From Escherichia coli (GTDB lineage: Bacteria; Pseudomonadota; Gammaproteobacteria; Enterobacterales; Enterobacteriaceae), in assembly GCF_003334405.1 (NCBI RefSeq), contig NZ_QOWM01000003.1: DNA of 64,000 nt; one strand, 5' to 3'. How positions within the stretch are numbered: position 1 is the first letter of the stretch; each line of letters begins with the position of its first letter. Made by a program: the position numbers and the translations under genes. The notes under the pieces were generated by a model. It saw nothing but the letters and a program-made list of their open reading frames with translations. It had not been told where the DNA came from and did not search any database. Below, piece after piece: positions 29,774 to 31,378 of the stretch.

Positions 29774-31378
29774 TTAATCAAACGAAAGACGCCGACGAGC
29801 ACGGGATGCAGGCTTTACGACCGCCCGAGCCATCGCCTCACCAATTTCTGCACATGCCGTAAGTCCCTGAACGAAAGGCTGGTCGTGCATCAACCAGGGC
29901 AACGCGCCGAACGCTACGCGCCCACGAATATCTTCGGGTTGCTGTAACGTATAATCTTCGCCAACATCAGGGATTTCATCCCCTGTTTTCTGTAATTGCT
30001 CGCGTAGCCCAGGGAAAGGGATATCTTTCACTTTAAGCGGACGTTGTCCGCGGGCATCAATAAAAACGTCAAACGAGTAGCTGTTGTCTTCCGTTTTCAG
30101 GACGGTGCGCGACTCATTAATTTCCATTTTGTAGTCTTCACCGAGGGCGAGAATATGAATGATTCCCGCTTCACGTAAGGCAAGTAGGCGACGAATAGAC
30201 TCTGAAGGGATTGCCGCATAATTATCGATGAAAACCCGGGCAAGGCCTTTACTGAACCGTTTATGGTCGTGTTCATTCAGATGTGGAACAATTTCCTGTA
30301 CGGCTTCATGCAGGCGCAGAATGACATAACGCCAGGGAACAGTATGTTTTTCTCGTTTATTGCGTTCGACTTCCTGGAGATTTTTTTCTGCCCAGTCAAA
30401 TGGGTCGCGTTGTTTGCGCTCGGCAAACCAGGCTTGAGCAAAGGAATCGACATTCAGGCTCTCTAAGGCTATGCGTTGACTCCAGTCTGGATCAGCAAAC
30501 TTGATTTCCTCTACTATCAATCTAAATACCCGATCCAAAAGGCCCTCTTCGCCTTTTTGAATCTCAGCATTTAATGCCTGATCGGTGACGATGTGTAAGG
30601 GCTCGTAGGGAATAGGGCAATAGAAATCGGCTTCGGGTAAAATACCCGTGCGCGACAACAACGTGATATTTAGCTTTTCACTTGCGTTATCGCGGTGAAA
30701 AACGACGTGTTGTTTATCATCTTCAATGAACGAACCATGCTGAATAGCCACTGCCATTGCCGCATCCAGTCCGCTCAAGGATGTTCCCATAATACCCACG
30801 TTACACGCATCGACCTTTGCTTCCATCAGGCCTGACCACGGGCTGGGAAAATACGTTCGGGTTGCTTCTTCTTCATCAGGCCAGACGTGACCCGTGGCGA
30901 TCACCGCTAAATCAAACGTCTCGCTGGGTAAATCCTGATTTGTAGCGAGCATGACGCCAGCATTTGTAATTTGCAGATCGGTAACCTGGCATGATTCATA
31001 AACAGCCACTGCAAATTTTTGCTGTCGTGCCTGGTCTACTAGTCGTAAAAATTGATCGCGGAAATATTCGCCCAGCAGAATTCGCGGTAAAAACTGACGA
31101 TCGTGCAAGGTTTCTTTTTTAACGCCATAACGCTGGAGATGGCTGTCTTCTTGCTTTTGTAGCCATTCGAGATACGTACAATAAATCGGCGGTATTTCAA
31201 TACTGGCAATATTTGCCAGCATCATTTTTGAGTTTTCCTCATCACTGTATGGCATCCCGACACCGGCCTCGTCAGCCTGCTCGAAGATAGAAATAGAAAG
31301 TGGAGTTTGTTGCTGTAGAAGCGAGAATAAGGTGTAGATCCCCGTAGGCCCGGCACCCACAATAGCAATTTTTTTCAT
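29774..31378 (-). CDS. ydhS: FAD/NAD(P)-binding protein of unknown function
   Basis: 534-aa ORF with N-terminal IAIVGAGPTG dinucleotide-binding motif; convergent on ydhT. Confidence 0.85.
   Translation of the reverse strand: MKKIAIVGAGPTGIYTLFSLLQQQTPLSISIFEQADEAGVGMPYSDEENSKMMLANIASIEIPPIYCTYLEWLQKQEDSHLQRYGVKKETLHDRQFLPRILLGEYFRDQFLRLVDQARQQKFAVAVYESCQVTDLQITNAGVMLATNQDLPSETFDLAVIATGHVWPDEEEATRTYFPSPWSGLMEAKVDACNVGIMGTSLSGLDAAMAVAIQHGSFIEDDKQHVVFHRDNASEKLNITLLSRTGILPEADFYCPIPYEPLHIVTDQALNAEIQKGEEGLLDRVFRLIVEEIKFADPDWSQRIALESLNVDSFAQAWFAERKQRDPFDWAEKNLQEVERNKREKHTVPWRYVILRLHEAVQEIVPHLNEHDHKRFSKGLARVFIDNYAAIPSESIRRLLALREAGIIHILALGEDYKMEINESRTVLKTEDNSYSFDVFIDARGQRPLKVKDIPFPGLREQLQKTGDEIPDVGEDYTLQQPEDIRGRVAFGALPWLMHDQPFVQGLTACAEIGEAMARAVVKPASRARRRLSFD

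Follow-up and report, generated by a model that had tools for sequence, protein, structure and literature searches.

The ydhS gene and its locus

We analyzed ydhS, a gene of Escherichia coli, in a 64,000-nucleotide stretch of DNA (contig NZ_QOWM01000003.1 of RefSeq assembly GCF_003334405.1; the window, below, means this whole stretch), together with its protein YdhS, which comparisons of sequence and modeled fold place among the class B flavoprotein monooxygenases. The coding sequence occupies positions 29774-31378 on the reverse strand and encodes 534 amino acids followed by a TAA stop, according to the open reading frame (ORF) list, the sequence itself, RefSeq, and the NCBIfam equivalog NF007381; the window's ORF listing has a single 534-aa frame here, with the N-terminus MKKIAIVGAGPTG. 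YdhS matches NF007381, its sole NCBIfam hit, end-to-end with 1117 bits (cutoff 783). The corresponding RefSeq record, at 100% identity, gives the gene order ydhV, ydhW, ydhX, phsC (ydhU), ydhT, ydhS, ydhR, two tRNA-Val genes, ydhQ, and mdtK. An earlier note on this stretch, made from its letters alone, had described the ydhS ORF, a GAGPTG fingerprint near its N-terminus, and a spacing of 11 bp between its stop and that of the convergent gene ydhT; the ORF list and our reading of the sequence bear out all three.

Of 5426 complete E. coli genomes, 5423 contain a match to a 2-kb query (ydhS and its flanks), with a DNA identity of 95-100%, and the ratio of nonsynonymous to synonymous substitution rates (dN/dS) of 0.07-0.14, calculated against four other Escherichia lineages, shows purifying selection. 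ydhS is a genuine gene of E. coli, conserved and under selection, and not a chance ORF. It is already annotated, and the enzyme it encodes is uncharacterized; the earlier observation was correct and is ordinary in kind. It is among the E. coli genes that still lack a known function; almost every genome of the species has it, although Shigella and some clinical lineages have lost or broken it. In E. coli strain 5CRE51 it is split by IS1, the Shigella YdhS copies are shortened to 366-435 aa, and a blaCTX-M-15 transposon has inserted chromosomally in ydhS in one ST131 sublineage (PMC9334617); ydhS has thus been inactivated repeatedly, and it is dispensable in host-adapted lineages. A PADLOC scan of YdhS, YdhR, and YdhT gave no defense-system match.

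Fold, family, and class assignment of YdhS

The only Pfam domain found in YdhS is NAD_binding_9 (PF13454; residues 5-164, E 5e-31), plus a weak Pyr_redox_2 match, and a search of the PDB with the single YdhS sequence recovered its N-terminal fingerprint only (E about 0.1), so a family profile was required for remote homology. The family is rather small: searching 1.84 billion cluster representatives exhaustively gave 987 clusters (E <= 1e-3), in which the identity of full-length relatives goes down to ∼25%. An alignment of 95 YdhS relatives was used for all residue conservation counts given below and for an AlphaFold model, which has a predicted local distance difference test score (pLDDT) of 94.6 and a predicted template modeling score (pTM) of 0.92, and shows two cores of the Rossmann type and, at residues 266-403, a block made entirely of helices. 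In a Foldseek search with this model, the top structure is FzmM (E 3e-23, vs. ∼1e-13 for KtzI, SidA, and PvdA), an N-hydroxylase of the FzmM/CreE type (PDB 8CP2/8CP5, from Streptomyces sp. V2). The FzmM match spans 478 residues, including the helical domain, whereas matches to reductases span only ∼270-300 residues, in the Rossmann cores. The YdhS family profile matched bacterial flavin-containing monooxygenases (FMOs; E 7e-11) and 8CP2 (E 1.8e-9), and hhalign of the YdhS family against an FzmM-family alignment gave a probability of 99.3% and E 3.7e-20 over 395 columns.

Two dinucleotide-binding motifs are present in the one chain, as is characteristic of class B enzymes: GAGPTG (residues 8-13) and GTSLSGLD (residues 198-205). 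GAGPTG is a GxGxxG fingerprint for flavin adenine dinucleotide (FAD) in the first Rossmann domain (31340-31357, reverse strand; from the translation and PF13454), with G8 kept in 93 and G10 in 94 of the 95 relatives. GTSLSGLD ends the segment VGIMGTSLSGLD (residues 193-205; 30764-30802, reverse strand), predicted from the alignment to be the site for reduced nicotinamide adenine dinucleotide phosphate (NADPH): its counterparts in the alignment are GSSxSAxD, the NADPH motif of bacterial FMOs, and RGLGLNFFD in FzmM, and it is strongly conserved (G198 in 95/95, S200 in 91/95, and D205 in 94/95). Tyr44 and Asn56 belong to the segment GMPY...LANIAS (31211-31249, reverse strand), which was aligned with 8CP2 and the FzmM family by hidden Markov model (HMM) and hhalign. 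In both alignments Y44 (kept in 87/95) falls on FzmM W51, and N56 (kept in 93/95) on FzmM N62; in FzmM, Trp51 stacks on the isoalloxazine and Asn62 lies over the flavin C4a (PMC10404684). By this correspondence, Asn56 is the candidate for the conserved Asn, Asp, or Glu that lies over the flavin C4a in class B enzymes and is critical for oxygenation. A further motif, SRTGILPEADF (residues 242-252; 30623-30655, reverse strand), located with hhalign, served as a retrieval pattern in the genome search described below. Its S242-R243 pair is common to YdhS and the SRRG of the strictly NADPH-dependent FzmM, and it is solely this pair that hints at a possible use of NADPH by YdhS.

The predicted all-helical substrate domain (residues 266-403; 30170-30583, reverse strand) lies between the two halves of the NADP domain. 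YdhS accordingly has the three-domain arrangement described for the PF13454 N-hydroxylases, namely NAD_binding_9 with a large helical domain wedged between the dinucleotide domains. Its cysteines, at positions 67, 130, 192, 254, and 509, are scattered and form no CxxC or CxxxxC, and thus YdhS lacks the redox-active cysteine pair of the pyridine nucleotide-disulfide oxidoreductases. Because the cofactor and catalytic features are kept, the fold and profile matches agree, and no CxxC or CxxxxC is present, we are confident, as far as alignments and a model can tell, that YdhS corresponds over its full 534 residues to a class B flavoprotein monooxygenase of the FzmM-like kind, built of three domains, one of them a helical substrate domain.

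The earlier note had seen no assigned function in the protein beyond its N-terminal fingerprint, and had proposed fold prediction and remote-homology search as a check; with a confident model, FzmM as the top structure, and the hhalign probability of 99.3%, that check succeeded, and the view of a protein unassignable over most of its length gives way to homology with FzmM along the whole chain. The same note had named clear homology to a characterized enzyme, together with independent regulation, as the outcome that would speak against it. Homology to a characterized enzyme class and, as described below, independent regulation were largely found; they do not extend to the substrate. On this last point the note stands, since our literature search found no published substrate or physiological role for ydhS, and the papers it turned up report screen phenotypes and expression changes only.

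Comparison with FzmM and other candidate activities

The characterized members of the PF13454 lineage are FzmM/CreE, which are aspartate N-hydroxylases, and HpyO. FzmM, an L-aspartate N-hydroxylase (nitrosuccinate synthase), is a monomeric class B monooxygenase with a ternary-complex mechanism, strict NADPH dependence, and FAD, NADP, and helical substrate domains (PMC10404684). Its substrate stimulates its NADPH consumption 60-fold. Both proteins belong to PF13454 and have in common the two dinucleotide motifs, an S-R-x-G sequence, the flavin-stacking aromatic residue (Y44/W51), and the catalytic asparagine (N56/N62), although YdhS is ∼70-80 residues shorter. They differ in the substrate site. 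The aspartate ligands of FzmM are Arg13, Arg266/276, Arg409, Arg412, Asn413, Arg416, and Arg577 (PMC10404684). In the hhalign alignment, Arg13 is replaced by Thr12 of YdhS, Arg266 by Asp251, Arg276 by a gap or P260, and R409/R412/N413/R416 by E358/Q361/E362/P365 (by ungapped counting, Y351/R355/L356/E358), so that at most one arginine of the cluster is retained, with R577 outside the mapping. Asp251 (30626-30628 in the window), part of the family signature LPEADF, therefore stands at the position of a substrate-binding arginine. Position 251 is an aspartate in 62 of the 95 relatives, including E. coli, and an arginine in 28, all of them distant relatives; to judge from this split, the Asp251 and Arg251 clades probably have different substrates.

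These replacements decide against the most obvious alternative, that YdhS is an FzmM/CreE orthologue which hydroxylates L-aspartate to nitrosuccinate, a donor of nitrite or nitro groups. No other solved structure comes nearly as close to YdhS as that of FzmM, and the two share a domain family, but the identity between them is only 17%, the aspartate-binding residues are replaced, and no nitrosuccinate lyase gene or biosynthetic cluster adjoins ydhS in the 89 loci compared. FzmM is encoded in actinomycete biosynthetic clusters, whereas in Enterobacterales and alpha-proteobacteria ydhS stands by itself, near stress genes. We regard the orthologue reading as hardly credible, and L-aspartate was rejected as the substrate, being largely refuted by the loss of the arginine cluster and the change of Arg266 to Asp251; with the aspartate site lost, a neutral or cationic substrate appears likelier than a dicarboxylate. 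Nearly as improbable is a role like that of HpyO from Xanthomonas, a FAD-dependent urate hydroxylase that forms 5-hydroxyisourate (HIU). HpyO, a hydroxylase that depends on NAD(P)H and FAD, is of a family distinct from HpxO, and by database names it is in the same domain family as the YdhS relatives. HpyO genes, however, accompany urate-catabolism genes, and no HIU hydrolase, OHCU decarboxylase, or allantoinase was found among the Pfam-annotated neighbors of ydhS in six contexts; moreover, a published survey finds HpyO in a limited number of bacteria, with phylogeny needed to tell true HpyO from its many paralogues.

A non-oxygenase role, as a reductase with two dinucleotide domains or an NAD(P)H oxidase (acting on a disulfide, persulfide, quinone, or ferredoxin), is somewhat less remote and still unlikely, since YdhS has no cysteine pair, the reductase matches stop at the Rossmann cores where the FzmM match takes in the helical domain, and the class B catalytic asparagine is kept in nearly all relatives. 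Other class B monooxygenases fit less well than the FzmM type. The ornithine and lysine N-hydroxylases (SidA, PvdA, KtzI, DesB, and NbtG) belong to a different Pfam family (PF13434), have a small substrate subdomain where YdhS has its 140-residue helical domain, and are encoded in siderophore clusters, in which ydhS is not found. Bacterial FMOs such as trimethylamine monooxygenase (Tmm) and SMFMO also have no YdhS-type helical domain, and their FMO-identifying motif region and C-terminal parts fail to align with YdhS.

Upstream region and regulation of ydhS

Upstream of ydhS lies ydhR (31504-31809, reverse strand; NCBIfam NF008333), a gene for a small putative monooxygenase that forms a separate transcription unit. 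In the 125-bp spacer between the two genes, right after ydhR, there is a GC hairpin with a T-run (z = -3.0; 2 of 200 shuffles fold as well). RNA folding of 132 nt identifies it as AAGGGCG-GTTAG-CGCCCTT followed by TTCA (31473-31491, reverse strand), the likely intrinsic terminator of ydhR. Closer to ydhS we predict a promoter element, ATCTCAACCAAACTTAT (31422-31438, reverse strand), from comparison of upstream regions, published genomic SELEX (systematic evolution of ligands by exponential enrichment), and the sigma-S consensus; the ydhS transcription start is accordingly predicted near 31418. The core of the element, CCAAACTT (31424-31431), resembles the sigma-S extended -10, whose consensus is TCTATACTTAA (PMC3367168).

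We compared 60 orthologue upstream regions, obtained after dereplication at 80% identity. The pattern CYAHRCTT is found on the sense strand in 29 of the 60 and on the opposite strand in one, and shuffling gives 1.7 such regions (maximum 7). Many of the elements have the longer form gTTTTCnACCACACTTAt, and others are TCTACACTTAT or GCTACGCTT; they lie 27-118 nt from the ATG, and the upstream neighbors differ, so that the element accompanies ydhS from genus to genus. An in vitro genomic SELEX with RpoS holoenzyme has a peak in the ydhR-ydhS spacer (PMC5493296), and in run-off transcription/microarray analysis (ROMA) ydhR is preferred by E-sigma70 (PMC3141248). Basal ydhS expression has been reported to depend on SspA, and to fall 16-fold after AZT treatment. 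Under LolCDE inhibition ydhS is up 7- to 14-fold, alongside otsB, ybaY, ymdF, fbaB, and ecnB, which are classical members of the sigma-S regulon. An exact GGAAC-N16-CGTT, the EcfG general-stress promoter consensus, is located at -62 upstream of an alpha-proteobacterial homologue; the EcfG evidence is supportive but thin, because only one of the six alpha-proteobacterial loci has the exact motif. As sites for CRP, PurR, sigma-E, sigma-28, or sigma-32, compared by eye with consensus sequences, the conserved element was a poorer fit than as a sigma-S extended -10.

Overall, ydhS appears to be regulated independently, and taken together these results make it a probable member of the stationary-phase or general stress response, transcribed as a monocistronic gene. 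We also observed a perfect 11-nt palindrome, TTATCTGATAA (31415-31425, reverse strand), that overlaps the predicted -10 and transcription start; it is kept in other Escherichia lineages, a similar sequence is found in one Citrobacter, and it could be an operator. On the other side of ydhR, a match to Rfam RF02194 (HPnc0260, a bacterial antisense RNA; 112 bits vs. a gathering threshold of 59) lies at 31793-31955 (forward strand), antisense to the 5′ end of ydhR and overlapping the tRNA-Val at 31917-31993 on the other strand.

The junction of ydhS and ydhT

ydhT (28950-29762, forward strand; from the ORF list and NCBIfam NF007410), the last gene of ydhYVWXUT, converges on ydhS. The ydhT TGA is at 29760-29762 (forward strand) and the ydhS TAA at 29774-29776 (reverse strand), with a gap of 11 bp (29763-29773) that contains no canonical terminator and is invariant in length, though variable in sequence, across five Escherichia lineages. 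Folding of the junction gave only weak, mutually exclusive 5-bp AT-rich stems spanning the ydhT stop (z-scores -0.66 and +0.92), in agreement with the earlier note, which had seen no obvious hairpin there and expected the two transcripts either to overlap or to end without one. A published ExcludonFinder analysis lists ydhS-ydhT among 165 convergent excludons, the transcripts overlapping in half or more of 58 MG1655 RNA-seq data sets. Two terminator candidates were rejected: the small hairpin over the ydhT stop is too weak and is explained by coding constraint, and a terminator-like site inside ydhS (29968-29985, forward strand), considered for ydhYVWXUT, has its stem and T-tract disrupted in other Escherichia clades. 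The number of terminator-like sites in the ydhS region is not above the shuffled expectation.

The convergent layout may itself be functional, as an excludon in which the anaerobic operon ydhYVWXUT and a presumably oxygen-requiring ydhS interfere with each other. The short gap, its constant length, and the ExcludonFinder listing are consistent with such an arrangement, as is control of ydhYVWXUT by FNR and NarL, for which we rely on work as cited in PMC3141248. Transcript overlap, however, is no demonstration of interference, and E-sigmaS shows a preference for the ydhY promoter in vitro (PMC3141248), which argues against simple mutual exclusion. In addition, ydhT adjoins ydhS in Escherichia only, other genera having unrelated neighbors, so that any coupling between ydhS and ydhYVWXUT would be lineage-specific and not part of core YdhS biology. 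We therefore consider a functional excludon possible but doubtful, and the functional link to ydhYVWXUT that the earlier note had suggested finds no support in conservation.

Several minor features lie on the ydhT side. A stable 10-bp hairpin without a U-tract, GACGGCGAA...TTCGCCGTC (29655-29685, reverse strand), stands inside ydhT, ∼100 nt past the ydhS stop; it is mostly kept in other Escherichia lineages, which coding constraint may explain, and it could mark or protect the 3′ end of the ydhS mRNA. Genomic SELEX has placed a binding site of the biofilm regulator RcdA within ydhT, between ydhS and ydhU (PMC3535384). The longest ORF of ydhX (27445-28164, forward strand) encodes 239 aa from an upstream ATG; the RefSeq product has 222 aa (669 bases).

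Distribution and genomic context across genera

The orthologues of ydhS share 63-71% identity across Enterobacterales and 66% in Brucella/Ochrobactrum. Searching species genomes with a 19-sequence alignment, we found a YdhS relative with two signature peptides in 437 of 100,044. Clustering of the neighboring ORFs in 89 ydhS loci revealed no conserved partner that would indicate a substrate, and in the examined loci no genes for urate catabolism, siderophores, or nitrosuccinate were seen beside ydhS. In Enterobacter, Lelliottia, and their relatives, mdtK and the tRNA-Val region precede ydhS, and a conserved gene for a 211-aa protein comes after it; the Klebsiella member of that gene's cluster matches Pfam Pro_CA (carbonic anhydrase). 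In Klebsiella oxytoca the genes flanking ydhS encode a LamB-like porin and a BOF-domain protein, and in Yersinia ydhS stands alone. Among alpha-proteobacteria, the homologue is 3′ of DUF892 and the large catalase gene katE in Brucellaceae and Pseudochrobactrum, and ahead of response regulator and RsbR/STAS/HWE-kinase genes in Alloyangia.

The copies in Brucella/Ochrobactrum and related alpha-proteobacteria, at 66% identity, are as close to E. coli YdhS as those of other Enterobacterales, and one Brucella pecoris assembly has two identical 3.1-kb contigs with a ydhS homologue, which suggests duplication or mobility. From such sequence comparisons, transfer of ydhS between bacterial classes seems likely. 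One study contributed both a Citrobacter contig and a contig labeled Chryseobacterium sp. 18061; the two agree in gene order and are almost identical in upstream sequence, and the assembly labeled Chryseobacterium is probably mislabeled or contaminated.

Proposed mechanism and significance

We propose that YdhS works in the cytoplasm as a single-component class B flavoprotein monooxygenase of the PF13454 lineage, with an amine-type soft nucleophile as substrate and its own sigma-S-type promoter, and give this reading a probability of roughly 0.6. Most likely, by analogy with its relatives, YdhS oxygenates a small molecule using NADPH and O2. FAD would be held by the N-terminal GAGPTG Rossmann fold, and NADPH would bind the second Rossmann fold (GTSLSGLD and Ser242-Arg243) and reduce the flavin. 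The reduced flavin would then react with O2 to a C4a-(hydro)peroxyflavin, stabilized by retained NADP+ and Asn56, and one oxygen atom would pass to a soft nucleophile bound in the helical domain, an amine nitrogen being the likeliest; of the possible substrates, neutral or cationic ones would again be likelier than dicarboxylates. The gene would be expressed as a monocistronic unit from its sigma-S-type promoter, under general stress or in stationary phase, and its transcript, with no terminator between the genes, would run into that of ydhT.

Several points weigh against this proposal, both as to the enzyme and as to its regulation. Identity between YdhS and FzmM is only 17-18%, we found no biochemical data for any member of the YdhS clade, and gene context gave no clue to the substrate. 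Class B folds include enzymes that act mostly as NADPH oxidases. The alignment of the substrate helices is uncertain, hhalign and ungapped counting differing by 5-6 residues, and for this reason the argument from charge reversal rests mainly on the replacement of R13 by T12 and of R266 by D251. Upstream of the gene, the E. coli element, ACCAAACTTAT, agrees with 7 of the 11 positions of the sigma-S consensus and has C, not T, at -12; the 29 occurrences among orthologues are not independent, because the element may be inherited along with the gene; the RpoS SELEX signal in the spacer is weak, with an intensity of 3.8 (PMC5493296); and our literature search found no rpoS-mutant expression data for ydhS.

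A bolder extension of the proposal is a long shot in our estimation. The YdhS clade would be unrecognized general-stress monooxygenases, controlled by sigma-S in Enterobacterales and EcfG in alpha-proteobacteria, in which an acidic pocket (Asp251, Glu61, and Asp371) replaces the arginines of FzmM; a cationic metabolite that builds up in stationary phase or under stress (for example, a polyamine, diamine, or tertiary amine) would be N-oxygenated to a protective or signaling hydroxylamine or N-oxide, and in Escherichia transcriptional collision with ydhYVWXUT would tie ydhS to oxygen.

Assignment to a class B, N-hydroxylase-like type narrows the experimental search to amines and other soft nucleophiles and speaks against both annotated activities of the domain family that could be checked, and the sigma-S-like element and the stress-gene neighborhoods in distant bacteria point to stationary phase, envelope stress, or osmotic stress as the conditions to look at. 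The analysis confidently assigns the whole protein to a known enzyme class, excludes the nearest characterized activity, gives evidence that regulation is independent and of a stress type, and finds support for the transcript overlap in the literature. If the substrate is a common metabolite, E. coli stress physiology would gain a new oxygen-dependent reaction through YdhS, and this might explain the lower susceptibility of ydhS mutants to type VI secretion.

Published phenotypes of ydhS

Deletion of ydhS has been reported to reduce susceptibility to killing by the type VI secretion system of Agrobacterium, a phenotype that was complemented. Prc cleaves YdhS in vitro, a reaction that is probably not physiological. 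In lactate-evolved Klebsiella a point mutation arose in ydhS, and deletion of the gene was without effect. In enterohemorrhagic E. coli (EHEC) grown with meat microbiota, ydhS expression doubled.

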